From the IMG/VR virus record IMGVR_UViG_3300010354_000288, positions 1 through 34,278 of that record: DNA of 34,278 nucleotides; one strand, 5' to 3'. The notes beneath the pieces are model-generated. The model saw nothing but the letters and a program-made list of their open reading frames with translations, made no database searches and was not told where the DNA came from. The DNA comes from a virus (Duplodnaviria > Caudoviricetes). Shown piece after piece: positions 5,653-27,390 of the stretch. Position 1 is the first letter of the stretch; every line of letters begins with the position of its first letter. A program made the translations under genes and the position numbers.

Positions 5653-5874
5653 ATGTGCGATGAACAAAACAAAGTCCTTCAAGAAGTAGCCCAAGAGTAC
5701 CGGGTTGATTTTCTGGAGAAGAACAGCGACCGATGGAAGTCTGGTACTCTGACGTTTGATTCGCGGGAAGAAGCAACCCAACATGCAATTGATGTGGTCA
5801 ATGCTGAGTTGACTATGTTTGTTGAATATCAGGTTGTTCTGGCAACGGAGCCTGTTGATCAACTCGTCTTTTGA
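5653..5874 (+). CDS. small acidic hypothetical protein
   Basis: AGGAGA RBS before the ATG at 5653; follows the helicase on the same strand. Confidence 0.55.
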   Translation: MCDEQNKVLQEVAQEYRVDFLEKNSDRWKSGTLTFDSREEATQHAIDVVNAELTMFVEYQVVLATEPVDQLVF

Positions 5875-6064
5875 AGCAACAGTTTGAGCAGAGCATAATC
5901 CGTTGATTTTCTTCGTAGGGAATCACGGTAGCTTCAACAAACTTCTCACAATTGAAAACTGTAACGGCAGGCTGGAAACCACAACATCCAGCCTGCCTTC
6001 TTTTTGGCTCTCCACGAAAATCGCATGGAGCGCGTTCAAGAACAGTCAGTTCAATCATGTTCAT
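5813..6064 (-). CDS. small Cys-rich hypothetical protein, last gene of the glycosyltransferase operon
   Basis: ATGA overlap with the upstream GT stop; Cys pattern C..RG...GCCG...C...CSNCC. Confidence 0.6.
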   Translation of the reverse strand: MNMIELTVLERAPCDFRGEPKRRQAGCCGFQPAVTVFNCEKFVEATVIPYEENQRIMLCSNCCFKRRVDQQAPLPEQPDIQQT

Positions 6065-6789
6065 AGGTTGGACGCTTTCAGAAACTCAATTGCCAGCTTG
6101 ACGTAATTCTGTTGCCATCGAGGTTCAAGAACTACATCACCCGCGACGATTGGTTTATCTCCAATTCTATTCCATTCATTCTTATTAAGAGATAAATGGT
6201 TGTGACTGATATTCCAACGATAAATGTAAAACATCATCCTTGGATTTATTACTTCGCCATTCAATGGATAGCCAAGTCTAACAAGTGTTCTATTGAAAAC
6301 TTGATCTTCATCTCCCATTGCATGTAAGTGCATCGGATAGCCGTTGCCAAACTTACCAAGAACTTTCCTCGACCAGATACTCATGTTATGAGAGTTGCCG
6401 GGAAACTGAGTCATCTTGACAATTCTGTTCACGTTCCAGAAGTAATGATTCTCACATCGCCATTCATCCTTGTCAGCCATCCTCATCGCTGAGAATGACA
6501 ATCGCCAAGGCATTGAGATGTCATCGTCATCCCATCGACAGAAAGCATCACCTTCAGCGTGCGCGATCATGAATCGAAGTTTGTGAGTCAGCGATTCAAA
6601 TCTGTCTGGCACGTTTAGAACTTTTACGCTCGGATGACTGAAGTGTAAGAACTGACCCGGTGTGTCATTGCAGATGATAAGTTCTTTGTCTTCGTAGTTC
6701 TGAATCAGGAATGAATTAACAGCCTCATTTACCAGATGGATTTGTTCTGGATAACGATTGTATGTCGGGAGTAGGCATGTAATTTTCAT
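6061..6789 (-). CDS. glycosyltransferase family 2 (GT-A fold)
   Basis: ITCLLPTYNR, S.L.Q.Y..KELIICND, WDDDD (DxD) and EDQ motifs; ATGA coupling to the upstream gene. Confidence 0.88.
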   Translation of the reverse strand: MKITCLLPTYNRYPEQIHLVNEAVNSFLIQNYEDKELIICNDTPGQFLHFSHPSVKVLNVPDRFESLTHKLRFMIAHAEGDAFCRWDDDDISMPWRLSFSAMRMADKDEWRCENHYFWNVNRIVKMTQFPGNSHNMSIWSRKVLGKFGNGYPMHLHAMGDEDQVFNRTLVRLGYPLNGEVINPRMMFYIYRWNISHNHLSLNKNEWNRIGDKPIVAGDVVLEPRWQQNYVKLAIEFLKASNL

Positions 6790-8786
6790 TGCTTCTGACT
6801 TTCCTCTGCTCTACGAATTGCTTCATCGACAAGAGAACCAAACAGGTCAGAGATTTTAATCTTTCCTGCAAATGAGCAGGTTGCTGACCTGATACCGGCA
6901 AACAAAAGTTCAGTCCATTTGTATTTGGTGGAATTGTCCTTCAAGCCCTGAACAATTCTTGATCTCTCTTGACGGCAACCATCTACGCCGAGGAAGTCCA
7001 TTTCAGCGGCAAGACGATTACAAGAACAGTTCTCTGCTGGCTTGATGCCAAGTTCAGCGTTCATCGCCTTTAACTCTGTACCCGGCCCTTTGCCAATCTT
7101 CCAAGCCATTACATTTTGCTTTGGATGGTCTTCTTCTCGGCAACCAAGAATTGTCAAACCATATTCATTGGATGTGTAGAAGATTGGTTTCCATTGAGGA
7201 TTGTCATCACAGAACGCGCGGAGAACAAAATTCAACCCTTGGCTACCAGTTGAATCAACATCACCGTAGACAAACGTATCGTGAATTACGATGAATCGTT
7301 TGATTCGATTGTGATAATTCGTCAGGTGTTGCTGAAGGGTTGATGACTTTCCATCAGTATCAATAAATAGAGTGTCAAATTCATCTGGCACATTGTGATA
7401 CGGTTCAGCATGATTCTGTACACGATTTAGTGTAAGTGTTACCGGCTTGTTGTAGGTAGTTCGTTCCAAGACGCTATTTAACGAATTGGTAACATCGTCC
7501 AGTTCTGATTGGTATGAAACCAGAAGTGATGGGCCACCAGCCAAGAAAGCAATTGTTGATTCACGACGATGCGTGAACTCGACAACACTATTGCTACGTT
7601 CAGCAACCATCTTTAGTGTTGGGAAGTGTTTATCCAAGTCGCGAGGAACATTTGAATAGTAGTTGTAGAGGTCATGCACTACACAAGTGTTGAGATCGGG
7701 CATGGTAACAATTCTTTGTTCCGATTGCTTTTTCTCAAGCATCTCTTTTGGTGACGCTGTGTTTCTTGCTTTATAACCTACAGGGTCATCAACAATCTTT
7801 TGCCATTCTGTTTCTGGAAGTAGTTTGTTGGAAACAAAATGGTTGTAGATTGAGTCAAGTGGAAGCCCAACTTCATTGAAAGCAAGAACATAGTTTCTGA
7901 CCTTGTTACGACGATCAACTGAATAGTTGATGTCTTCAGGGCCATTGAACTTATGATTCCATTTAAGAAATGGAAGACAGATACATCGCCTGCCAGCATT
8001 TCGGTATTTGGTGTGAATATAACCTTCTTCACCACCAAACCCTCTCATGTGTGGGTTGAACCCCAGCCATGACTCAGTTCGAGCCAGAAACAAACCAAGA
8101 CCCATGGCTGGGATCTCAAACTCATAGCCACGATCAATTGCTGTTTGATACCCAAGTTGTTCAAGAATTGATTGGTGGCCGTAGTACAAAACCTTCTTAC
8201 CAAGGTTGTACTCAGTTATCTCTGGAGAAAGTTTGATGAACTTGCAACGAGCGTCTTCAATTGGGTGCTGAATGACTGAGAAGTATTCACCGTTCTCATG
8301 ATCCCACCATGCAGTTCCCCATTTGCCCCACATCTCAGAATCCCAGATGAGATCAAAATGTGTTGATGCAGTAACAAGATCATCCATCATGATTGGGCCA
8401 CTCATCAAATCATCGCGGTGAACCTCGCCTGTGTTACCTTGCAACTGGCGAACCAACTCTTGTAATGCGCCTGGTACAAGCAGAATGTGCGAATCAATGC
8501 ACATCGTCCACTCTGTCTCTGATTTGTTAAACACCATTTGCCGGGGTTGTGTTGTCCCAAACAATTCTGGAGGACAAACAAAATATCGACATCGGATGTC
8601 ACCAGAATGATTGGCTAAGAATGTTTGTGTCTTCTTGCCGTCAACAGTATCTGGTGCGTTGTCAACAACGAGAATTTCTACCGGCAAATTGTATTTCACA
8701 ATCTCCATCTTCAATGCTTGAACCGTAGCCCACAGCATTTTGAAGTCATTGTGAACCGCCATTCCAACAGTGAGGATGTTTTTCAT
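6786..8786 (-). CDS. multidomain protein: N-terminal GT2 glycosyltransferase, class I SAM methyltransferase-like domain, C-terminal CxC domain
   Basis: LTVGMAVHND, EILVVDN, CIDSH (DxH), GFGGEEGY; then VVEF...STIAFL, LFIDT, FIVIHDT..YG, YGLTIL (Methyltransf_24-like); then GPGTELK...CSCN...MD.LG.DGC. Confidence 0.8.
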   Translation of the reverse strand: MKNILTVGMAVHNDFKMLWATVQALKMEIVKYNLPVEILVVDNAPDTVDGKKTQTFLANHSGDIRCRYFVCPPELFGTTQPRQMVFNKSETEWTMCIDSHILLVPGALQELVRQLQGNTGEVHRDDLMSGPIMMDDLVTASTHFDLIWDSEMWGKWGTAWWDHENGEYFSVIQHPIEDARCKFIKLSPEITEYNLGKKVLYYGHQSILEQLGYQTAIDRGYEFEIPAMGLGLFLARTESWLGFNPHMRGFGGEEGYIHTKYRNAGRRCICLPFLKWNHKFNGPEDINYSVDRRNKVRNYVLAFNEVGLPLDSIYNHFVSNKLLPETEWQKIVDDPVGYKARNTASPKEMLEKKQSEQRIVTMPDLNTCVVHDLYNYYSNVPRDLDKHFPTLKMVAERSNSVVEFTHRRESTIAFLAGGPSLLVSYQSELDDVTNSLNSVLERTTYNKPVTLTLNRVQNHAEPYHNVPDEFDTLFIDTDGKSSTLQQHLTNYHNRIKRFIVIHDTFVYGDVDSTGSQGLNFVLRAFCDDNPQWKPIFYTSNEYGLTILGCREEDHPKQNVMAWKIGKGPGTELKAMNAELGIKPAENCSCNRLAAEMDFLGVDGCRQERSRIVQGLKDNSTKYKWTELLFAGIRSATCSFAGKIKISDLFGSLVDEAIRRAEESQKQ

Positions 8787-8792
8787 CGGGCA

Positions 8793-11489
8793 TTATCCGG
8801 GGACAAGGGTTGTAGTTGTCGTTGTCGATGATGTTGTGGTGGTAGTTGTTGTAGTCGTAGTAGTGGTGGTTGTGGTCGTCGTTGTAGTAGTTGTGGTTGT
8901 GGTAGTTGTAGTAGTTGGAGAAGCACATGGGACTGTTGTTGGGTCATCACAGTAAGTTCCAACAACATTGTCTGGACAACCACATTCAAGTAATGCGCCG
9001 CCACCACAATTCGATGAAATTAACACATAGGCATTGTTGACGCAACTGTAAACACAGCTACCTGTACATTCACCATAGCAGGCGTCACAAACTGTTCCAG
9101 CACCAAGCCAGTTGCCGACATTTGCATTGCACTCTGCTTCGGTTGTGATTGTGCAACTATCTTGTGGGTAGTCACAGCAAGCACCAGTTGGTGTGGCAGT
9201 TGTAGTCGTAGTTGTTGAAGAAGTGGTTGTGGTTGTTGTCGTTGATACCCTGTTACAACCAACCTTAATTGAATCACCAGCGCCTGTTGGGCTCCGGTAA
9301 GCAGGCCCGCAATAACAATCACCGTTGCACTTGTCTACCGGCAGTTCATCCCAGAATGTTCCTGTTGATGATCTTCGGATGCAGTAAGAACATTCAACTG
9401 ATGGTGTTGTAGTAGTGGTGTAACACTCATCACAATTTCTACAGCCACGATCACCTTCGCAGTCAGTGTAATAAAGTTTACAAGGATCTGGGTTTGTTAT
9501 TGAAGGTGGTGTTAGACAACCACAAGTTCTTGGATCATCAAAATCACAAGTTAATGACTGGCATGTATTACAAATGTTAAACCAACATAAATCGTCATCT
9601 GCTGGTGGTTGCAAATCTAAACCTGAACATGGTGCGTACACCCATGTACAAACACCATTACAACAAATTGATGGATTTATACATTCGCCTTGACAACTAG
9701 AATGATATGTGTCACCACAATCAGGGTTTTGTGGCAAGTCAATCGGGTTTATATCACTGCAATTGCAAGCGTTACAATCTTGCGTTCCAGAATACCCAAC
9801 ACAACACAAATCATAATCTGCTCCGCAATAATCTGGTGTTCTGTTATCTACACCAACACCGCATTGCCAATTAGTTAAATACCATCTAATTATTGTTTCA
9901 CCAGTACAATTTGTTGATATGTCTTGGTAAGCAATAAAATCACAACCCGGCCTGCTCGCACAGTTAGAATAAAATTTAGTTGTCGTTGTGTTGCAATTGC
10001 ATGTGGTTGTAGAGCAGTATGGTGGGTCGTTGTCATCCACGTTGTCAGTGCAATATGTGATTGTCACATCACCATCTGCATCACCGCAGAAATCTGGATA
10101 CTTACATTCACACGGAACAGTTGTAGTTGTTGTTGTTGAGCTATGCGTTGTATAGCAATCTTGGAAGTCAGGGTCTGGTGTTGTGCTTGTTGTTGTGCTG
10201 GATGTACTGGTAACAACATCTGCGCAATTATCATACGAGATTGACCAAGCCTTTGTTGGTGCATCCCACTCCCAAGTACAATAGCCAGTGCAATCAGCAG
10301 TAACTGGTGGTGGTACAGATGTTGATGATGTAGTACTGGATGTTGTAACTTCAGTATCCATAAAGATTTCGATCTCGCGATCAAACTCTGGAAACTGATA
10401 GTTCATCATGTCAAGTGATTTGACTTGAGTGAACATCCCGGACTGACCATTGTAGATTCCGTGGAAGAACTCAATGTAATGGCAAGAAGCATCCGGCTTG
10501 AACGGGATGATGCCGAAGTAAGTTGCATCTTTTCTATTCAGCGGTGTAAACGAATCGTAGTACAACGTGCTGAGGATACAGGCGAGAATTGTAAGTTCTT
10601 CAAAGTATGTCGATGCGCGTGCATGGTCTGGATCGTAAATGTTATAAACATTCAAATCCTTCTTCATACCATCTTTGAATGTTTCTGTACCACCGTATGT
10701 ATTTGGGCATACAACCGGGTCATTCCAGAATGTTGAATTGAATTGCCGGTACTTCACCTGCAATTCTTCTGGGAGATAGGGAGCAAAGATGGTGCTATCA
10801 AATTTCTTGCTGACTAGCCTGCCAACATTGTCATCAAACAAATCCAAGTTTGTATTGTCGATATAAGAATTTCGTTTGATGCTGAATGTTGAACCAACAC
10901 CATGATCTTTATAAACCTGATGACTGGCAAGCTGAAGAACATCATTCAGCATGTTCCAATCAGAGTTGGTTGTTTGTGTGGCAACATCCCGCAGCATGAT
11001 GGCAGGAAACTTGGCATTGGTCTTATCAACACCAGCCCAAGCTGAATTGATGTTTGTGTTGTTCCAGTAAGTCTGTAATGCGGCTGACCAACTGGTTGCC
11101 CTTCCTGCTTGGCTGAATTTCTCATGCGGTGGGAACGGATCAAAATTCAATCTCGTTTCATGGTGAAAAGCCACATGCCGCTGGTCTGCAATCTTGACCA
11201 AGAAAAGCTGATTCGTGCTATTGACCGGGTTAGAAGCATTAACCTCGGTGATCATCAGATTGTTGATGGTAACAGTTTCGTTACCATCAGAGATTTTTAG
11301 CTGCAAGTCATCGCGGTTGATGAGGGCTGGTAAATCATCCTTGAGAAGCAGGACATGCCCGTAACCAGACATCCTGCCACCAACCAGACAGAAGCCAAAC
11401 CGCACCCCATTTTTCTGGAAGAAAGAAAGGATTTCGTCGGTTGGATAGACACAAGCAACCCCGCCGAGGGATGTGTAGGCAGCGCCCAT
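8793..11489 (-). CDS. large putative virion/tail protein with a C-terminal Cys-rich region interrupted by poly-Thr (mucin-like) tracts
   Basis: About 900-aa ORF. The first ~380 aa are globular. The remainder has dozens of Cys in CxGxCxW/Y and GACC-type modules separated by Thr/Ser runs. AAGGA RBS before the ATG at 11489. Confidence 0.7.
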   Translation of the reverse strand: MGAAYTSLGGVACVYPTDEILSFFQKNGVRFGFCLVGGRMSGYGHVLLLKDDLPALINRDDLQLKISDGNETVTINNLMITEVNASNPVNSTNQLFLVKIADQRHVAFHHETRLNFDPFPPHEKFSQAGRATSWSAALQTYWNNTNINSAWAGVDKTNAKFPAIMLRDVATQTTNSDWNMLNDVLQLASHQVYKDHGVGSTFSIKRNSYIDNTNLDLFDDNVGRLVSKKFDSTIFAPYLPEELQVKYRQFNSTFWNDPVVCPNTYGGTETFKDGMKKDLNVYNIYDPDHARASTYFEELTILACILSTLYYDSFTPLNRKDATYFGIIPFKPDASCHYIEFFHGIYNGQSGMFTQVKSLDMMNYQFPEFDREIEIFMDTEVTTSSTTSSTSVPPPVTADCTGYCTWEWDAPTKAWSISYDNCADVVTSTSSTTTSTTPDPDFQDCYTTHSSTTTTTTVPCECKYPDFCGDADGDVTITYCTDNVDDNDPPYCSTTTCNCNTTTTKFYSNCASRPGCDFIAYQDISTNCTGETIIRWYLTNWQCGVGVDNRTPDYCGADYDLCCVGYSGTQDCNACNCSDINPIDLPQNPDCGDTYHSSCQGECINPSICCNGVCTWVYAPCSGLDLQPPADDDLCWFNICNTCQSLTCDFDDPRTCGCLTPPSITNPDPCKLYYTDCEGDRGCRNCDECYTTTTTPSVECSYCIRRSSTGTFWDELPVDKCNGDCYCGPAYRSPTGAGDSIKVGCNRVSTTTTTTTSSTTTTTTATPTGACCDYPQDSCTITTEAECNANVGNWLGAGTVCDACYGECTGSCVYSCVNNAYVLISSNCGGGALLECGCPDNVVGTYCDDPTTVPCASPTTTTTTTTTTTTTTTTTTTTTTTTTTTTSSTTTTTTLVPG
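8808..8915 (-). repeat. poly-threonine tract (T28-SS-T6) encoded by mixed ACN codons
   Basis: Direct reading of the NGT triplets on the + strand; all four Thr codons are used. Confidence 0.95.
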
Positions 11490-11552
11490 GAGATGATCCT
11501 TGTACAAACCAGTAATTGGTTACATGGTACAGGGATACTTGATAATCATCTA

Positions 11553-11669
11553 CAAGGATCATACTTACGGTAGTATACCCTTTGTTCGTATTGTAATTGT
11601 TACTTCACTTCGTTCAGTAACAATTACACTACTCTCTACAGGGTATACATACCTCCAGTATGATCCTTG
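11553..11669. repeat. long nested inverted repeat (arms of 13, 4, 9 and 13 bp) able to form a hairpin or cruciform
   Basis: CAAGGATCATACT(11553-65)/AGTATGATCCTTG(11657-69); GTATACCCT(11573-81)/AGGGTATAC(11640-48); TGTAATTGTTACT(11592-604)/AGTAACAATTACA(11616-28). Confidence 0.9.
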
Positions 11670-11915
11670 ATCCTGATCTACCAACCATACCCCACACCCC
11701 CCAAACCCTCGCTGCGCTCGGGTTTTACCCCCCAGTTCCCCATCCTGTCAACACCCAACCTCTGATTTTCCTCCAGAAAATTGGGGAGCCGGGGGTACTT
11801 TGGCTAGGAGCCTCAAATTTGACCTATAACGAACGATCTCAGTTTGGGGGTGCTGAGATACCACCTAGACCCAGAAAACGCTTCTACGGGGCTGCTAGAG
11901 GCCAAATTTGAGATA

Positions 11916-13193
11916 TTAAGCCACCAGACCAAGCTCAGTTTCACCTTCTGGTGGCATTTCCTCCCCTTCCGTGGGTTGTTCTGGAGGTTGACCGGGCTGG
12001 GGAGGCTGACCCGGCATGACTGGGGCTTGTTCGGTTGGGAATAGCTCACCTTCGGTTCCGGGCGTTCCGGGGGCTGAATTGAGGGGGAACGGCATCGCGT
12101 CGAAGGTGTCGTAGGGGAGTAGTCCTAGCCGGGCGTTAATTTGCACCAGAGGCTTGATAATCTGGTCTACAACGTCATTAAGAAGATTCAGCAGTAGTTC
12201 GTACAGGACACTGTAAAACGCATCCTCGGGGATACTACGACCGGAGGATGACCCGAATCCTTGTGAACCGGATGACTCGATGACTTCTGGAGGGATGCCG
12301 AGGGCTTCTAGGATTTCCACACGAAGGGACTGACCGTATTCAAACAGACCTGATGGAATTGTATTTCCTCGGGCTGCTTCGTAGTCCCAGCGTTTGTTAC
12401 CTCGCTGATCAGTGTCAGAGGGGAGAGTCATGACAGCCCCAGCCCGTTTCTTTTCAATCATCTCTTGCGCGATGTCTTGGTATGAACGGATTCGACCATC
12501 CGGGAGTTGAACGGTTCCTTGTGGGTGTCGCATGATGCCACCCTCAAATGCGTTCTTGTAGAACCACAGACGGCGTACATCGCGGTATCCACCTTCACTC
12601 CAGATTTCATTCCATGGGACATGCGCTGCATACAGACGGGATAGACCGTAGTGCTTGTTGTATTCCTTCCAGTGAACGTGATGGAAGGCTTTAGGGCCAC
12701 CAAGGTAAACAGCTTTACCGGGGGCCATGTTGATGGTCTGGTAATTGGATACCAAGATGCCAACACGTTGACCTTTGTTGGTGACTACTTTGACTGACGG
12801 TGGTTCAAAGTCATTGAGCTTGCAGTAGACAACACGACCTGTCTTTTCATCTTGTTCGTATTCCACTTCGCAACCACTGTACCCCCATTCGATTGCTTTG
12901 AGAGCTTGGGTGACTCCTTGCCGCCAGAATCGTTTGATTTGATCTTGGACGAACTCTTGCACTTCAGGGGTATCTGATTCAACTTTGAATCGAGCCTTTG
13001 CCATCAAGTGACCTTTGATGATCCAGAGTCCAAACCGGACACGAGGGTCAATTAGCATCTCCCTGATGGTGTAAGTGTTGAATAGCGGACGGTTGCGGGT
13101 GTACCCCCATTGAGCCCAATAAGTTCCGGGAACGTAGTCAGTGACTTGGGTGTTTAAGAGGTCATTGATGTTGACCAGCATTTCGCGTGGCAT
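11916..13193 (-). CDS. portal protein (DUF935/Mu gp29-like)
   Basis: 425 aa with EMLIDPRV, LKAIEWGYSGCEVEY and YGLSRLYAAHVPW motifs, plus a Pro/Glu-rich low-complexity C-tail, typical of this portal family. Confidence 0.75.
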   Translation of the reverse strand: MPREMLVNINDLLNTQVTDYVPGTYWAQWGYTRNRPLFNTYTIREMLIDPRVRFGLWIIKGHLMAKARFKVESDTPEVQEFVQDQIKRFWRQGVTQALKAIEWGYSGCEVEYEQDEKTGRVVYCKLNDFEPPSVKVVTNKGQRVGILVSNYQTINMAPGKAVYLGGPKAFHHVHWKEYNKHYGLSRLYAAHVPWNEIWSEGGYRDVRRLWFYKNAFEGGIMRHPQGTVQLPDGRIRSYQDIAQEMIEKKRAGAVMTLPSDTDQRGNKRWDYEAARGNTIPSGLFEYGQSLRVEILEALGIPPEVIESSGSQGFGSSSGRSIPEDAFYSVLYELLLNLLNDVVDQIIKPLVQINARLGLLPYDTFDAMPFPLNSAPGTPGTEGELFPTEQAPVMPGQPPQPGQPPEQPTEGEEMPPEGETELGLVA

Positions 13194-15751: not shown

Positions 15752-17356
15752 TTATAAATTAAACGAGAAGATTGGCTTCTTGTCGTTTGGATCTGAGTTG
15801 TCATTTCCAATTGATGCTGGTTGCATATTCAAAAATCTTGCTAAATTTGTAGCAATTGTATTTTCGCCAGTTGTGATTTTGTCCTTATTGTTTCTCAAAA
15901 ATTCTTTTAAGTCTGGCATGACCAGAACACCAGTAGCAAAAAAGTTCATAATGTTTTTAATTTCATCTTGTGTGAAATTAAAGTTTCCACTGAGCAGTTT
16001 TCCAATGATGTCAGCTATTGAACTGAGTTCATCAACGGCAACAGTTAAACCATTGTTAATTGATGTTAGAAGAGGCGCAAATGCCATTGTTAATGAATCA
16101 CCAAATTTAGTCATTGCTATATCAAGTGATGTTTGAGATTGCTCAAATGAGGCGAGTCTTTCTCCAAACTTTCCTGCTCTCTCGATATTGAACCGCATCA
16201 TTCTCATTTGAGTTGTGATGCCAGATGCAATTAAAGCACCAGACCAATTTCTAATCGAATCAATTGCATTATTGAATCTATTTGTTAGTAATCGTGATGC
16301 AAGAATAAGACCGCCAAACACACCAGCAGTAATTCCAGCGGCGACACCAATTGAAAGTAAATTTCCTGATATAAGCCTCATGGCGCCTGCCATTAAGCCG
16401 CCACCTCCACCACCACCTGCGCCGCCTGCTGCACCAGCGGGTGAACCACCAACAGGAGGTAAACCACCAATACCACCAATTCCTCCAGCAGCACCACCCG
16501 GCTGAACGGGAACAGCCATTTTGATATTGGCTGGTTGCAACGCCGGTACATTACTTCTAATTCCTAGTGGTTTGTATTCACCAGAAATCATTTGAGCCAT
16601 AGACTTTAATCTATCTCGTTCAGTTGGCTTAAATCCTTTTGGTTTATAGCCCCACCACCAAGGCATATCTTCTTCTGGAGGGGAAACAGATGTGATTGTT
16701 TCTTTCGCCATCCCGGCGGCAGCAGTTGTAGCCGGTGATGTTGTTATGACTTGTGACGCCATGCTTTTTGCTTGTGCGCCACGAAAGAAAGAACCTGTCT
16801 GACCAAATAAGGTTTTTAGCCCATCAGACAAAGATTGAAGGATTCCACCAACTCGCTGTTGAACTCCTTCACCTTCACCCGGAACACGGGATACATCACG
16901 CTGTGATGTGATACCGGCAGTATTGAGCAAGCCATAGATGCTGCTCATCCGATATTGGAATGTGGAATTTGGATTTATCGCACCGAGAACATGCCGAAGC
17001 ATCATTTCCCGATGTCGATCTTGTTTATTGATGTCGGCTTCTCGTGCGCGTTGCTGTTGTCTTATTACAACATCAAGTTGCCGTTTAGCTTTCATTTCCT
17101 GAACAGTCAGGCGAGTTTCCTCAATCTCCTTTTTCTTGACAGACTTCTCTTCATCAAAGGTCATCTTTTGATCTTTGAGAAGTTGTCTACGACCTTTTAA
17201 TTCTTGGTTCTCTTCAAATTCTTTTGCCCGCGCAGCAGCCTTCAATCTGGCAAGAGCTTTATTGAACTCTCGTACAGATGCAAAATCATCCGGGGATAGA
17301 GCAGAAGCGCTTCCATCCCCAGAGTCGATGATTTCAACTTCCAGTTTTTCTGACAT
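15752..17356 (-). CDS. tape measure-like protein
   Basis: Follows the tail tube gene; N-terminal coiled coil, Gly/Ala-rich linker, hydrophobic segment, helical C-terminus. Confidence 0.6.
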   Translation of the reverse strand: MSEKLEVEIIDSGDGSASALSPDDFASVREFNKALARLKAAARAKEFEENQELKGRRQLLKDQKMTFDEEKSVKKKEIEETRLTVQEMKAKRQLDVVIRQQQRAREADINKQDRHREMMLRHVLGAINPNSTFQYRMSSIYGLLNTAGITSQRDVSRVPGEGEGVQQRVGGILQSLSDGLKTLFGQTGSFFRGAQAKSMASQVITTSPATTAAAGMAKETITSVSPPEEDMPWWWGYKPKGFKPTERDRLKSMAQMISGEYKPLGIRSNVPALQPANIKMAVPVQPGGAAGGIGGIGGLPPVGGSPAGAAGGAGGGGGGGLMAGAMRLISGNLLSIGVAAGITAGVFGGLILASRLLTNRFNNAIDSIRNWSGALIASGITTQMRMMRFNIERAGKFGERLASFEQSQTSLDIAMTKFGDSLTMAFAPLLTSINNGLTVAVDELSSIADIIGKLLSGNFNFTQDEIKNIMNFFATGVLVMPDLKEFLRNNKDKITTGENTIATNLARFLNMQPASIGNDNSDPNDKKPIFSFNL

Positions 17357-17359
17357 GAA

Positions 17360-17986
17360 TTAGGCTGATACAGTGAAGAATCGGTAAGCAGCAGAACCGG
17401 TTGAATCAACAAAGAAGATCATAAATTCAACTGGAACAACGCGAGGCTTGTTGTTGAGGTTGATCTTGGATACTGAGTCTGGAGTCAGAATAGCGCGATG
17501 GAAGGTGATGGTGTTCATCGCAACATCAGCAGGGCCGGTGGTTGACCATGACGGTGTTCCAATGTTGTTATTCCAACCGTGATTGAAACCTTCGCCTTGA
17601 ACGCTGCCAGCATTGAAATGGCAACCAGCCTTTACCAATACAAGTGGTTTGGCTCGGGTGTTACCTTGAGCGTCAACTGCACGAACTGCTGATTGACCAA
17701 TACAAAGCATCTCACCAAAGGTATCAACACCTGTGCTAAAGGCTGGGGCGCCCCATAGTGCTGACATCAACCCAGGCGCATCCCATTCCTTGATAATGCC
17801 GCGAACACGAATCTGGGCTCCACGACCAATCATGTCTACTTCATTGTCACCGGATTCTTCAACAGAAACCATCATGCCTTTGTGGATGATGTCGATTTCC
17901 CAACCGTCTTCTGTTGCGCCAAGATACAGTCCGTTGTAATAGGCGTTGTAATGACCTGACATTACATTTACTACAGGTGTTGCCAT
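17360..17986 (-). CDS. major tail (tube) protein
   Basis: 208 aa with YLGATEDGWEIDI and ITFHRA...VPVEF patterns typical of siphoviral tail tubes; GGAG RBS. Confidence 0.65.
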   Translation of the reverse strand: MATPVVNVMSGHYNAYYNGLYLGATEDGWEIDIIHKGMMVSVEESGDNEVDMIGRGAQIRVRGIIKEWDAPGLMSALWGAPAFSTGVDTFGEMLCIGQSAVRAVDAQGNTRAKPLVLVKAGCHFNAGSVQGEGFNHGWNNNIGTPSWSTTGPADVAMNTITFHRAILTPDSVSKINLNNKPRVVPVEFMIFFVDSTGSAAYRFFTVSA

Positions 17987-20549: not shown

Positions 20550-21476
20550 TTACGGTGTCCCCCAAAATGTCTTCGCATTGGCTTCCCATGTCGTGCGGCT
20601 GGCTGTGCGGTCGCCTGACCAAATAACCAGCTCGCAGAACGTGCCATCAAAAGGCAATGCCCCACTTGGATACGCCAGAATCGTGAGATTGCCAGCAGCA
20701 TTTTCAACGAACGGAACACCAGTTGCGGCGTTTGCTGTTGCTGACGCTGTGCCGTCCTGCCACACAAATACACGATTCGCAGCCGTTCCGTTGTCTGGGT
20801 CTATTGCAACAGAATTCAATCGCATGTTGGTGGTACTTGTTCCAGCTGCTGAAATTACGACAGAATTTCCAGTGGTGGATACTCCCCCGCTGTCAATTTT
20901 GCTAGCCCTGACGTCAAAACTTTCTGTTGTTCCAGACATTAAAGTGAACCCAGCTTCGGCTGATAGGCTGCTCGCTGTTCCAATCAATACTTTTCTGACC
21001 GCTGTGTCGGCTGACGCATGAACAGCGTACAAAGTCCCGCCAGTTGTGTGCAAAAAATTGTACGTGCTTGTTGAGCTGGCAACACTCATTCGCCTTGCCG
21101 CTGCCGTCGTCGTCGAACAGGCGAGAAATCCGTTTTGCGTCACAGCCACGCCGGAAGATACGCAAATGGGCTGAAGCGTTGTGGTCGATTGTGTCAGATT
21201 GCGAGACAGTCCCGACTGCCCGTAGATCGTCGTCAGGAACCCATCGCCCGCGCCGCAAAAAGCCGCAACCGCTGCCGCACTCACCGCACCATTGGCACCG
21301 CTGCCACTAAAATCCTGTTCCGCATTGTCGCTTGACCGGCGAACGCGAATGACTGGCCCGCTGTAACCAGCCCGTAAACGCCGACCGACCGACCACGCAG
21401 ATTCAAGACCAGAACCGAGCGTGTCCAAGGAACCACGAAAGCCAGCATTTCCCATCAACAGCAGCAATCCCATCAC
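20550..21476 (-). CDS. lectin/concanavalin A-like (arabinofuranosidase-B N-terminal-like) virion protein
   Basis: AWSVGRRLRAGYSGPVIRVRRSSDNAEQDF...YGQSG..RNLTQ and FDGTFCELVIW motifs of LamG/AbfB-like phage fibre proteins. Confidence 0.7.
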   Translation of the reverse strand: MMGLLLLMGNAGFRGSLDTLGSGLESAWSVGRRLRAGYSGPVIRVRRSSDNAEQDFSGSGANGAVSAAAVAAFCGAGDGFLTTIYGQSGLSRNLTQSTTTLQPICVSSGVAVTQNGFLACSTTTAAARRMSVASSTSTYNFLHTTGGTLYAVHASADTAVRKVLIGTASSLSAEAGFTLMSGTTESFDVRASKIDSGGVSTTGNSVVISAAGTSTTNMRLNSVAIDPDNGTAANRVFVWQDGTASATANAATGVPFVENAAGNLTILAYPSGALPFDGTFCELVIWSGDRTASRTTWEANAKTFWGTP

Positions 21477-24788: not shown

Positions 24789-26027
24789 CTACAGCTTGCC
24801 GAGCAAACTGTTGACGATTTCATCAGCACGACCATCATCCACCAGACCAGCATTGAGCGTCTTGTTGTTCTCAATCTGGAGTTGACCGTTGGATTCGTTA
24901 GCCATTGCGATAACTGGATTGACATTCAGATTGGGAATGACAACGCTTTCCAGCGCTTCAATCTTGCTCTGAACCAGCGGATTGACAGGCGAACCATTGT
25001 TGTCAAACGACATCTGGATGGATTCGATTTCACTCTCGTATCCAACCTTGGTTTCATCGTTGATCACGTTTCGTTGACGGAGCTTGGCAACTCGGCTTTT
25101 CAGATCAGCCTTCAGGTTGTTGGCAAGCAGAGACAACATGCCTTGGTTTTGGGATTGAATGGACTTGAAAGCTGGATGGCTCATCACAGTTTCAACGTCA
25201 ACCAAGTTCTGCTGAACCTGTGCGCCACCATTTTGCTGATTAACTGACATGACTACCGGAACCTCACTGATTTCGGATTTAGGAGGTGGTTTAAGAACAG
25301 TTCCACCAACACTGTTGTTGCCTTCAGACAACTGTTTCTGGAGTAAAGCAGCAACAAGGGCTTCTCGGAAGTCCTCGTCTGATGTGTTCGGTGGCAGTTT
25401 TACTTTTGCAACCTTCTCCAGAAGCATGAACACATCGGTTGTATTGATCATTTGAGGACTGTTATTGCCCTCATCATCATTGTCTTCCAAGTCATTGACA
25501 TTTCCAGTCAACGTAGAAGCGAAGTCTTCAACACCCATGCTGATAATCCTGTGACTCATGGCAATTGCCAATTCGTTGTTAGCTGGCTTGAAGTTGTTTT
25601 GACCCGGTTCAATTGGTTGAGTGCAACAGGCAATGTGAGTAATCACGTTGTTCCATTCACGACCCAATCCATCAACAAACTTTGGTACAGCAAAGATTGA
25701 TGTTTCCTTGACGGTCTTACCAATCTTTTCTGCATCAGATTCAAGAGGAACATCAAGCACACCAACCAGTTTGCCTGATTCGTCTTGCTTGAGTTCTTCC
25801 CAGAAGCCAAAGTTCTCTTTCGATGACGATGGTTTGTTTTCCGGGACAGCCTGTTTGTCATGATATGCCGGCGCTGGTATGTTCAAACCAGACTTTCGCA
25901 TTTCATTATGCTGCTTGACCCAATGACTGATCATCTCTTTCGTGATCAGCTTTGCATGACGATTGCCCTTCGCATCAGATACTGCGTACAGGCCGGGTGT
26001 CAGAATCTCTTTCTCGAACTTTGGCAT
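24789..26027 (-). CDS. capsid maturation protease/scaffold (Mu gpI-like)
   Basis: N-terminal protease-like region (YHD, GFW, ETSI, THIACCTQP) plus an acidic, helical scaffold-like C-terminus; first gene of the head operon. Confidence 0.7.
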   Translation of the reverse strand: MPKFEKEILTPGLYAVSDAKGNRHAKLITKEMISHWVKQHNEMRKSGLNIPAPAYHDKQAVPENKPSSSKENFGFWEELKQDESGKLVGVLDVPLESDAEKIGKTVKETSIFAVPKFVDGLGREWNNVITHIACCTQPIEPGQNNFKPANNELAIAMSHRIISMGVEDFASTLTGNVNDLEDNDDEGNNSPQMINTTDVFMLLEKVAKVKLPPNTSDEDFREALVAALLQKQLSEGNNSVGGTVLKPPPKSEISEVPVVMSVNQQNGGAQVQQNLVDVETVMSHPAFKSIQSQNQGMLSLLANNLKADLKSRVAKLRQRNVINDETKVGYESEIESIQMSFDNNGSPVNPLVQSKIEALESVVIPNLNVNPVIAMANESNGQLQIENNKTLNAGLVDDGRADEIVNSLLGKL

Positions 26028-26065
26028 TATCTGTTCCAGAAAAAACTATCGTCACAATCATGACA

Positions 26066-26093
26066 AGCATATAATCGCCCAAACACCTGTCAA
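26066..26093 (-). promoter_or_regulatory. sigma70-like promoter TTGACA-N16-TATGCT for the head operon, overlapping a + strand TATAAT (26070-26075)
   Basis: Divergent intergenic region 26028-26121. Confidence 0.5.
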
Positions 26094-26121
26094 ATACATT
26101 TTCTCTGGGAGAAAACGGTCG

Positions 26122-27390
26122 ATGGCTATTAACTACGCAAATCTTTTTGGTGACTTAGGTGATATTTATAACACCATAGAAGATATAGAAACATTTGGCG
26201 CAACGATGCTTTCTAATAAAGCAACAGTTATCGCGCAACTTACTGCATCAGGTGAAACTGATCTCATCACACAAGCCAATTCAACCTTTGATACCGCGAT
26301 CTCTTCTATCAACACCATGCTTTCAAACATGGTCAACTTATCGCGTCGAAGACTGGTCAGCAAAGCCAGCATTTTGGAGCAACTGCCATCACTTACATCA
26401 AACGACTACAACAACGTGATGTACGAACTAATTGATGACATGGTTGCAAACTCACAGACGATAAAAAAATCTACAGTTACTATTGGCGCAATTACAAAGA
26501 CAGCGACAAATGCTAACTCTGGTAGCCTAATTGTGACGAAAAAACTTCCCGGTAACACTTCTCCCGGTGAAGGAATGTATGCGCATCCTGATATGACAGG
26601 TCAAGATTCTCAACTTACTTTGACTGATAGTTTTGTTGTAACTGTTTCCAATGACAATCAGGCAAGTGGTGGTGGTGGTGAAACATTTCAGATCACCAGT
26701 TTGCCTGCTGCTGCTGGGCCATTTACTGTGCAAGGTGGTGGTAACAGGGGTGTTAGCACCTTTTCACCAACCAAACAGCGAAGCATTATCAGCAACTTCT
26801 TCTCATCTTTTAGTGGAACTGTTCCATCGGGATGGACTGCGCTGGATGCAAATGACTATGCAGTAGAAACATCTGTCGTTATGTTCGCCGGTACAAATTG
26901 TTTGAAGATTATTTCAGCCGGTACTCTCAGCTACGACTTCAGCACAGCAGTAAGACCGGGACAAATGTTGTGCTTATCCTTCTATCTCAGAAAAGTTGTT
27001 GGTGAGACTGGTAGTATAAACGTCAAGGTCTACATCAATGGTTCAGCAGTTGTAAACCAGACAATTGTTACTGGCTCAGTATCTAGTTCAGCGTGGACTC
27101 TATTCAACTATGATGTCGCTGTCACCAAGGAGACTGGAACCTGTTATATCGAGATCATCTCAACATCAATTACAAACGGTTACTACATCGACAACGGCGC
27201 CTTGAGTCCTTATCACCATCATGCTGGGCTTGGGTTCGCAGTTACAAGAGGAACCGAAGTCTTTGTCAAAGGCGACGATTTCAGGTTCACAACAACAAAC
27301 GACAACGCTGGTAAGCAGCAACGATTGTTATCCAGAATTGTTGGTTTCCAGCCACCAACAGCCAATACTGGTACTATCGCAGAACCCTAG
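26122..27390 (+). CDS. putative structural protein with a C-terminal carbohydrate-binding-like beta-sandwich, encoded opposite the morphogenesis module
   Basis: GGGAGA RBS before the ATG at 26122; helical N-terminus; Thr/Ser/Gly-rich C-terminus with VPSGW, LSFYLR and YYIDN CBM-like patterns. Confidence 0.6.
   Translation: MAINYANLFGDLGDIYNTIEDIETFGATMLSNKATVIAQLTASGETDLITQANSTFDTAISSINTMLSNMVNLSRRRLVSKASILEQLPSLTSNDYNNVMYELIDDMVANSQTIKKSTVTIGAITKTATNANSGSLIVTKKLPGNTSPGEGMYAHPDMTGQDSQLTLTDSFVVTVSNDNQASGGGGETFQITSLPAAAGPFTVQGGGNRGVSTFSPTKQRSIISNFFSSFSGTVPSGWTALDANDYAVETSVVMFAGTNCLKIISAGTLSYDFSTAVRPGQMLCLSFYLRKVVGETGSINVKVYINGSAVVNQTIVTGSVSSSAWTLFNYDVAVTKETGTCYIEIISTSITNGYYIDNGALSPYHHHAGLGFAVTRGTEVFVKGDDFRFTTTNDNAGKQQRLLSRIVGFQPPTANTGTIAEP

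Follow-up and report, generated by a model that had tools for sequence, protein, structure and literature searches.

The window, 34,278 nucleotides of IMG/VR record IMGVR_UViG_3300010354_000288, comes from an uncultured freshwater phage and contains what is, with a probability of roughly three in four, a mobile glycosylation cassette. As predicted from sequence comparison and structural models, an enzyme resembling the ppGalNAc-Ts would glycosylate the Thr tracts of the phage's own predicted tail hub, and a second glycosyltransferase would extend the glycan. The earlier note on this DNA had proposed a glycosylated, mucin-like tail protein. That idea gains strong comparative support, and a more specific form, from the hub fold, the ppGalNAc-T-like enzyme and a two-way co-occurrence of enzyme and tracts; the GT2 label given to the first enzyme is not retained. 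A literature search, with most subscription papers outside its coverage, found no published description of this cassette.

Four genes on the minus strand form the cluster. These encode the 898-aa predicted hub protein (8793-11489, read from an ATG; an alternative TTG at 11507 gives 904 aa), a 666-aa transferase fusion (6786-8786), a 242-aa second glycosyltransferase (6061-6789) and a small Cys-rich protein (5813-6064). A 6-nt gap separates the stop of the 898-aa gene from the ATG of the 666-aa gene, and ATGA overlaps at 6786-6789 and 6061-6064 join the three downstream genes. The ORFs, the gap, the overlaps and the Thr/Ser tracts are all as first described. The gene overlaps, and only these, suggest that the four genes are coupled on one transcript; promoter and terminator scans gave chance-level results only. 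The region is recovered in contigs of four other studies, in which single contigs cover 7021-11733 and 6822-11288. The gene order is therefore not an assembly artefact.

The small gene (5813..6064, minus strand; 83 aa, 7 Cys) is real and conserved but lineage-specific. Copies are present at the same position in loci L002 (75% identical) and L003 (33%) and in none of the remaining loci compared at that point. It occurs only with the three closest phages and falls outside the widespread cassette, so its proposed membership of the system is dropped. Neither this protein nor the 898-aa protein has a Pfam or PHROG match.

Residues 1-380 of the 898-aa protein (10350..11489, minus strand) form a predicted tail hub with the Tal / gp27-like / VgrG / Mu gp44 fold, based on AlphaFold, VIA and Foldseek. 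The AlphaFold model has a pLDDT of 89.7 and a pTM of 0.88. In VIA, the model aligns over 307 residues to 9gtr_q (Z 17.6, rmsd 4.1) and has a Z of 14.5 to Mu gp44 (1wru_A). The best viral Foldseek match is a Mu-like gpP (E 4.8e-12), and Atlas concurs. The gp27-like four-domain fold of tail hubs, Tal and VgrG is predicted in these residues, and the hub alignment has no match in Pfam or PHROGs. Only 5 of 62 hub relatives carry the Thr/Cys extension, which indicates that the extension is exchangeable; the N-terminal parts to which it is attached belong to at least nine unrelated families. A hub-anchored locus search returned the three closest phages only, and the cassette is present in all three. 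The tract-free hub relatives are sequences without gene context and were left out of the scoring of enzyme presence.

In the remaining 518 residues (381-898; 8793..10349, minus strand), Thr/Ser tracts alternate with Cys-rich modules. This extension is the putative glycosylation substrate. It contains six tracts of 5-36 residues (382-391, 427-437, 450-457, 691-695, 749-764 and 859-894), two more of 4 residues, and 59 of the protein's 64 Cys, and it terminates in the 36-residue tract. All four Thr codons are used in that tract (ACA 12, ACT 10, ACC 8, ACG 4) and a tandem repeat within it matches at 73-75% only, so it is no clean microsatellite; the mixed codons speak against a microsatellite origin. 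None of the 33 other ORFs in the window has a T/S run longer than 5.

Two of the Cys-rich segments differ in distribution. Module A (C-x-G-x-C-x-W-x-W...W...C; 10218..10301, minus strand), found by alignment between tracts 1 and 2, accompanies the transferase. The pattern is present in 31 of 49 transferase clusters and absent from 18; among anchor clusters, it is found in 12 of 15 that are transferase-positive and in 0 of 42 that are transferase-negative. The central Cys-rich block (residues ~504-694; 9410..9979, minus strand) is flanked by two Thr tracts and is swapped between strains. It is exchanged for 574 other letters in contigs from two of the four runs compared (two studies). Identity is lowest here in 5 of 6 relatives, yet reaches 97% in P0001. 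This block is a candidate binding module.

The first enzyme begins with a ppGalNAc-T (GT27)-like GT-A domain (residues 1-340; 7767..8786, minus strand), a predicted initiating polypeptide O-glycosyltransferase. All 32 Foldseek matches listed within ranks 1-50 are ppGalNAc-Ts. In VIA, ppGalNAc-Ts score Z 22.1 (rmsd 3.2, 264 aligned) and 21.4, and the next family 18.6. The family profile aligns to ppGalNAc-T10 over both motifs (E 2.1e-6). D98-x-H100, E254 and H278 are invariant in all 117 family members, and the Gal/GalNAc-T motif region aligns, reading FGGEE here and WGGEQ in ppGalNAc-T10. Both transferases match the GT2 family PF00535 in Pfam. When only sequence profiles are compared, GT2 enzymes score at least as high as GT27, but just over the N-terminal half. 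The GT2 label nevertheless does not fit the first enzyme: the modelled fold, with the invariant DxH, the GGEE and the C-terminal His, places it beside the mucin-initiating ppGalNAc-Ts (GT27), minus their lectin domain. A phmmer search of the 666-aa enzyme against PDB sequences has no match, and its relatives emerged by profiles and folds only. No relative is present in 50,697 annotated phage records.

A type II membrane anchor is a feature of GT27 ppGalNAc-Ts. This anchor is absent from the phage enzyme, in which the GT-A fold begins at residue 1 and the top 19-residue hydropathy is 1.14; neither transferase has a transmembrane or hydrophobic segment. GT60 enzymes have no lectin domain. The GT60 family PF11397 has no match, in filtered searches, at E<=1 in five enzyme-carrying records (a loose first look) or at E<=0.05 among 30 family members, and no GT60-labelled chain is among the PDB matches listed. 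The GT60 polypeptide alpha-GlcNAc transferases resemble the first enzyme in the DxH motif, in the polypeptide Ser/Thr acceptor predicted for it and in the absence of a lectin domain. According to the available text of PMC7185993, DxH replaces DxD only in GT27 and GT60, both of them polypeptide Ser/Thr families. The ricin lectin domain, a defining part of ppGalNAc-Ts in the available text of PMC4202792, is absent here; residues 370-552 have a methyltransferase fold and residues 560-666 are helical.

In VIA, residues 370-552 (7131..7679, minus strand) have the fold of a class I O-methyltransferase; their SAM site is remodelled. The closest matches are 8c9v_A (Z 15.9, rmsd 3.1, 164 aligned), MeT1 (14.2) and SpnH (13.7), and the seven-stranded Rossmann-like fold of this class is present. 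The earlier suggestion of a transferase fused to a methyltransferase-like domain is thus confirmed at the level of the fold. Class I SAM-dependent O-methyltransferases have a glycine-rich motif I and an acidic residue after strand 2. Here, motif I reads EFTHRRES against EFGxRxGxS in canonical relatives, with both glycines replaced, and Q426 stands in place of the acidic D. The canonical G405 and D426 are both retained in only 3 of 117 family members, and 60 of 70 domain clusters depart from the canonical pattern. To judge from these residues, the domain is likely a pseudo-enzyme or a sugar-binding module. An O-methyl cap, also part of the original proposal, is doubtful in this phage since the usual SAM-binding residues are missing from the fused domain, and the cassette has no separate glycan methyltransferase. 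Such a methyltransferase, canonical in its residues, adjoins the altered-domain enzyme in five relatives (L009, L010, L015, L058 and L059).

An active fused domain that caps the glycan with O-methyl, like chlorovirus A064R, is improbable against this background, though it is the alternative that fares best. The fold is close to that of sugar methyltransferases, D476 is retained in 112 and D503 in 97 of the 117 members, and RRES, the motif found instead, is conserved in its own right (E409 in 109), which leaves room for a non-standard SAM site. A GT2-methyltransferase fusion is also present in Che8 (gp108), and A064R is a precedent in the available text of PMC9614988. The replaced glycines and acidic residue, and the relatives that have a second methyltransferase, favour a domain that no longer methylates.

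The first enzyme ends in a small helical domain (GPGTEL..CxC..C; residues 560-666; 6786..7109, minus strand) with three conserved Cys. Phages that lack the first enzyme also have this domain, as a gene of its own or attached to different transferases. In Atlas, it matches unnamed phage proteins only, with scores of 0.88-0.89 (below the 0.9 mark). The second enzyme (6061..6789, minus strand) is of GT2 type by Pfam (PF00535), with DDD 88-90, D162 and H198, and is the predicted chain extender. Its closest solved match is a heparosan synthase (E 4e-13). Of 56 viral loci with room for it, 47 have it, and annotated phage records contain two weak matches to it.

The first enzyme and the Thr tracts co-occur in both directions, as the earlier note would predict. 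Of 76 viral loci with room, 71 have a Thr/Cys gene upstream of the enzyme, as do all 41 clusters, against a background of 5 in 926 ORFs; approximately 690 viral stretches match the search patterns. In the reverse test, 79 loci anchored on other tail genes comprise 27 with both, 50 with neither, 2 with tracts only and 0 with the enzyme only. Of the two discordant loci, one has a poly-Ser protein and the other an ORF that is probably spurious. These 79 loci represent a handful of independent events, and both anchor genes were originally picked up beside the enzyme. One anchor tree has four separate changes. On the tree of the larger of the anchor sets (13/0/0/17), the enzyme-plus-tract state needs no more than one change (1-3 in bootstraps), so that table is close to a single event. 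Glycan-tailoring genes follow the enzyme in relatives and include canonical methyltransferases, sulfotransferases, MptE-like genes with a cytidylyltransferase, and an epimerase.

The concordance in 77 of 79 anchor loci bears on a second alternative, in which the transferases act on a host surface glycan (superinfection exclusion) or on phage DNA and the tracts are unmodified flexible linkers. Phage transferases with host-glycan or DNA roles do exist (PMC12619734, available text). Among chromosomal relatives, 38 of 43 GT-only ones and 7 of 21 fusions lack a Thr/Cys gene in the 4 kb upstream, and other acceptors are therefore possible for the family. An unbiased converse scan of poly-Thr viral genes, which covered 3 of 64 collection parts with flanks for 80 of 125 partly overlapping loci, found 76 of the 80 without the first-enzyme family. 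The earlier note had counted common homologous poly-Thr proteins without glycosyltransferases against its idea; most tracts in this sample are non-homologous to this one. The polypeptide-transferase motifs are invariant, neither enzyme has a hydrophobic segment, and no base-modification gene is recognised in the window (Pfam/PHROG) or on visual inspection of the remaining record. Taken with the concordance, these observations make a different acceptor quite unlikely.

Least probable, despite the distribution of module A, is that the enzyme modifies folded Cys modules, as do the Notch EGF and thrombospondin-repeat transferases, or S-glycosylates Cys: the module pattern is absent from 18 of 49 clusters, the nearest solved enzymes modify Thr/Ser in mucin peptides, and in three other viral loci a stand-alone 285-300 aa form of the enzyme has poly-Thr genes poor in Cys close by, in two of them as immediate neighbours. 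Cys-rich proteins are present in 23 of 42 enzyme-negative clusters, and the enzyme is missing where fibres are Cys-rich but have no tracts; the enzyme thus follows Thr and not Cys. A predicted complex between the 666-aa enzyme and residues 380-510 of the 898-aa protein scored 0.01 and carries no weight either way.

The closest proven system is the virion glycosylation of mycobacteriophage Che8 by gp108-110 (Freeman et al. 2023, as described in citing papers). Both phages have overlapping, phage-coded transferase genes, one of which encodes a fusion to a methyltransferase-type domain (in Che8 the GT2-methyltransferase fusion gp108, with PF00535 and PF13578), and the second enzyme resembles the gp108 GT2 domain (HHalign 71.5%, E 3.6e-5). 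The initiating enzyme and the substrates differ. Che8 glycans, according to the same citing papers, are on virion proteins at the C-termini of the capsid and tail tube, whereas in this phage the capsid is tract-free and the candidate substrate is the multi-tract hub extension. The essential gp110 matches GT25 (a Pfam reading; the published classification may differ), with an HHalign probability of 0.1-3% against the GT27-like profile. No gp110 homologue is found here, with a probability of 0.1% for the first enzyme and ~1 bit against the second-enzyme profile. The eukaryotic ppGalNAc-Ts (PDB 8v9q, 2d7i) share the fold, the DxH and the metal-binding His near the C-terminus, and align over the Gal/GalNAc-T motif region; mucins likewise have Thr/Ser tracts interrupted by Cys-rich domains. 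Identity is ~15-17%, however, and the phage enzyme is predicted to be cytoplasmic, reads GGEE, and carries methyltransferase-fold and Cys-containing domains instead of a lectin domain and anchor. Chlorovirus PBCV-1 A064R / A061L, in the available sources, is also a virus-coded transferase-methyltransferase fusion acting on its own structural protein, but this concerns an N-glycan of an algal virus capsid, rhamnosyltransferases and an active methyltransferase.

The proposed mechanism starts from the predicted components: a hub with a Thr/Cys extension, a GT27-like domain with intact Mn/UDP-binding residues, and a second GT2 enzyme, with no transmembrane segments. The first enzyme would act in the cytoplasm at a late stage of infection and transfer host-made UDP-HexNAc (GalNAc or GlcNAc) in alpha linkage to tract Thr/Ser; no sugar-synthesis gene is recognised in the record. 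The GT2 enzyme would then attach a second sugar by inversion. More weakly, the methyltransferase-fold domain might grip the attached sugars, as the ricin lectin domain does in ppGalNAc-Ts. Three copies of the extension would hang from the hub trimer, with glycosylated tracts as stiff, protease-resistant spacers that bear the Cys-rich modules, and the swappable central block would be the best candidate for host binding. We tentatively prefer this spacer and host-binding function, at somewhat less than even odds, over pure shielding or the glycan itself as bait. The host is probably a planctomycete, although of 301 genomes from the Schlesneria phylum no more than 4 have hub matches, and these are weak.

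A broader proposal, less likely than not, is that hundreds of aquatic phages, mostly planctomycete-infecting, run a self-contained cytoplasmic mucin-type O-glycosylation. It would comprise a prokaryotic sister family of the ppGalNAc-Ts, a dead sugar methyltransferase used as a lectin, densely glycosylated tail-tip 'mucins' and lineage-varying caps (methyl, sulfate, nonulosonate). The same enzyme family adjoins Tat-signal-like Thr/Cys proteins in Chloroflexota chromosomes. If the proposal is true, these chromosomal pairs would be a living model for a prokaryotic origin of mucin-type glycosylation.

To our knowledge, proven virion glycosylation is limited to a few mycobacteriophages. With this cassette, a large set of phages from aquatic habitats would join them, using another enzyme and another substrate, and the glycans would probably act where the virion binds its host. 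The first enzyme could serve to make mucin glycopeptides in E. coli. A soluble, lectin-free ppGalNAc-T relative working in the bacterial cytoplasm would bear on the origin of mucin-type O-glycosylation.

The four minus-strand open reading frames of the cassette encode an 898-aa protein (8793-11489), a 666-aa enzyme (6786-8786), a 242-aa GT2 (6061-6789) and an 83-aa protein with seven Cys (5813-6064). The 6-nt gap, both ATGA overlaps and, in the 898-aa protein, the Cys-rich C-terminal half with six tracts of 5-36 Thr/Ser are all present as the earlier note described. Codons are mixed in the long Thr tract. The gene order is reproduced by contigs from four other studies. The cassette is real, widespread and apparently undescribed; a literature search for a description of it found none.

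The 666-aa enzyme has at least 519 relatives, and 117 of the 120 listed entered its alignment. The model folded from this alignment (pLDDT 94.3) matches polypeptide GalNAc-transferases in all 32 Foldseek rows shown. In an independent structure aligner, two polypeptide GalNAc-transferases rank highest (Z 22.1 and 21.4), followed by a chondroitin polymerase (18.6). A profile built from 30 rows matches human ppGalNAc-T10 (E 2.1e-6) at the DSH motif, in the Gal/GalNAc-T region and at the metal His. The same profile aligns with GT2 enzymes over its first half only, and one GT2 enzyme outscores ppGalNAc-T10. D98, H100, E254 and H278 are invariant among the 117 family members. The available text of Taujale et al. 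(PMC7185993) limits the DxH motif to GT27 and GT60, both of which glycosylate Ser/Thr in polypeptides. That of PMC4202792 describes a lectin domain common to all GT27 members. The 666-aa enzyme, unlike these, has no lectin domain and is therefore not classed as GT27, but it likely works like a GT27 enzyme.

Residues 1-380 of the 898-aa protein, folded from a 38-row alignment (pLDDT 89.7), are most similar to tail hubs and VgrG/gp27-like proteins (best Z 17.6 with 307 aligned at rmsd 4.1; Mu gp44, Z 14.5). Each of the top 40 rows in the fold search is a tail, baseplate or injection-system protein, and a viral structure library agrees. Only 5 of 62 hub relatives have the Thr/Cys extension, and in other phages it is attached to nine or more unrelated families of N-terminal domain; it is thus a mobile module. 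Genes that bear it usually come last in the tail module. Ahead of the second tract stands module A, a short Cys/Trp motif. The central Cys block (9410-9979) is the least conserved segment in five of six relatives. In strains from two studies it is replaced by a 574-nt alternative with breakpoints at the flanking tracts, which may double as recombination joints.

For forward co-occurrence, 81 viral loci were taken: the window phage's own record and the best 80 of 534 confirmed. The 76 that extend at least 1.5 kb upstream were scored, counting any same-strand ORF within 4 kb with a T/S run of at least 7 and at least 10 Cys per 100 residues. In the reverse direction, 135 loci were fetched via two other tail genes, and those with a downstream flank of 6 kb or more, 79 in all, were scored. 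The pairing of transferase and poly-Thr/Cys genes that the earlier note suggested testing holds in both directions (71/76 forward, directly adjacent in 67; 77/79 concordant in reverse), but the enzyme family is absent from 76 of 80 poly-Thr viral loci, which tells against generality. In the other four, the enzyme is near the tract gene. By cluster, the forward count is 41/41, against a background of 5/926 among other ORFs. Two of the five negatives have a Thr/Cys gene directly downstream; another, L029, has Thr-Pro repeats under the threshold, and L036, also negative, is its close relative. The reverse loci comprise 27 with both genes, 50 with neither, two with the tract only and none with the enzyme only. 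In the tree of the larger anchor set, one change suffices (bootstraps 1-3); the smaller set, which includes two rows added from the enzyme side, requires four. The signal therefore comes down to about five events, with separate lineages in addition. A Thr/Cys gene accompanies 14/21 fusions of the GT27-like and methyltransferase-fold domains versus 5/43 relatives with the transferase domain alone, among the best 80 of 295 genome loci.

On Chloroflexota chromosomes (Thermomicrobiales and kin; L112:6469-15171, L156:7059-9947, L125:1345-3956, L147:9308-11686), the same GT27-like enzyme neighbours proteins that are rich in Thr, Cys or both and whose N-termini are twin-arginine-like. No phage genes are evident at these four loci, and L112 also has an NAD-dependent epimerase. 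The related viral loci L029 (14097-15476) and L070 (15628-16995) each encode a Volactin (PF25216) actin-family protein, adjoining in L029 a gene for a DNA polymerase III alpha PHP domain.

Residues 370-552 of the 666-aa enzyme have an O-methyltransferase fold by structure comparison of the model, and the fused domain of some relatives matches PF13578 or PF04989. The O-methyl cap raised as a possibility earlier is not borne out in the window, where motif I reads EFTHRRES and strand 2 is followed by Gln; an active methyl cap from this domain is unlikely. Both canonical residues are kept in 3 of 117 family members, and canonical and altered forms fall mostly on opposite sides of one weakly supported split. 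Acidic residues 476 and 503 are retained. We infer, as an unproven reading, a sugar-binding pseudo-enzyme. On the Schlesneria chromosomes L104, L101, L110 and L151, the fusion has a canonical methyltransferase motif and no Thr/Cys gene upstream.

Among 89 downstream proteins scanned, some relatives have separate methyltransferases or sulfotransferases behind the enzyme and probably cap their glycans; the window phage's cassette has neither. In L032, L035, L039, L059, L062 and L054 (12959-14250), the transferase is followed by phage-coded sulfotransferases (PF03567), or by an MptE-like gene together with a cytidylyltransferase, which suggests sulfated or nonulosonate-capped glycans.

The 242-aa GT2 retains DDD and H198 as well as D162, its putative base; it is similar to heparosan synthase and to gp108 of mycobacteriophage Che8. 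Of the 56 viral loci whose downstream flank is 4 kb or longer, 47 have it together with the first enzyme. Among the loci compared, the 83-aa protein occurs only in the three closest phages, and its proposed membership in the conserved system is not supported. Phages that lack a GT27-like enzyme also have the C-terminal GPGTEL..CxC..C domain of the 666-aa enzyme, either alone or joined to a different transferase-like domain (L315:6137-6679, L335:11960-13321, L338:10510-13362). There its genes often follow Cys-rich fibre genes, and this unnamed family may be a fibre partner.

By family matches, the fragment derives from a tailed DNA phage with terminase, lambda-type capsid and decoration proteins, a Mu-type portal and head-tail adaptor, and recombination and helicase genes. 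Among the matches listed, near-identical DNA occurs in at least 20 aquatic, pond, aquaculture and sludge runs from 11 studies, two of which may be where the fragment itself comes from. No match came from the family search for the genes at 17360-17986 and 15752-17356, which are labelled putative tube and putative tape measure from their position. The portal gene (11916-13193) is embedded in the tail module far from the terminase, with the putative tape-measure region on one side and the hub on the other; a 434-aa gene occupies the same place in L003. A 475-aa gene (25963-27390), inside the head module on the opposite strand, weakly matches the carbohydrate-binding module PF02018, below cut-off. 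One of the head-completion genes (20550-21476; 308 aa, Ser+Thr 24%) matches a virion-protein PHROG and, over residues 25-99, the arabinofuranosidase B catalytic family PF09206; its product is a possible second carbohydrate-binding appendage.

Of the best 80 of 295 genome loci, 16 combine the fusion with a Thr/Cys gene; 12 of these carry the label Planctomycetota, and some lie on contigs between 165 kb and 1.07 Mb long. In the Schlesneria phylum, 301 genomes gave four weak matches to the hub profile. The host is probably a planctomycete.

According to the available text of PMC12619734, PMC11256854, PMC13445384 and PMC12363180, enzymes encoded by Che8 itself put glycans on its capsid and tail tube. 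Che8 gp108, like the window's first enzyme, is a transferase-methyltransferase fusion, but its transferase is a GT2; gp110 matches GT25 in a Pfam search. By profile comparison, no tested Che8 glycosylation enzyme is related to the GT27-like domain. The chlorovirus transferase-methyltransferase fusion A064R is active, as reported in the available text of PMC9614988. The cassette would represent a further form of virion glycosylation in phages, in which the hub tracts are probably O-glycosylated (probability about 0.75); a spacer role for the glycan is conceivable, at somewhat less than even odds.
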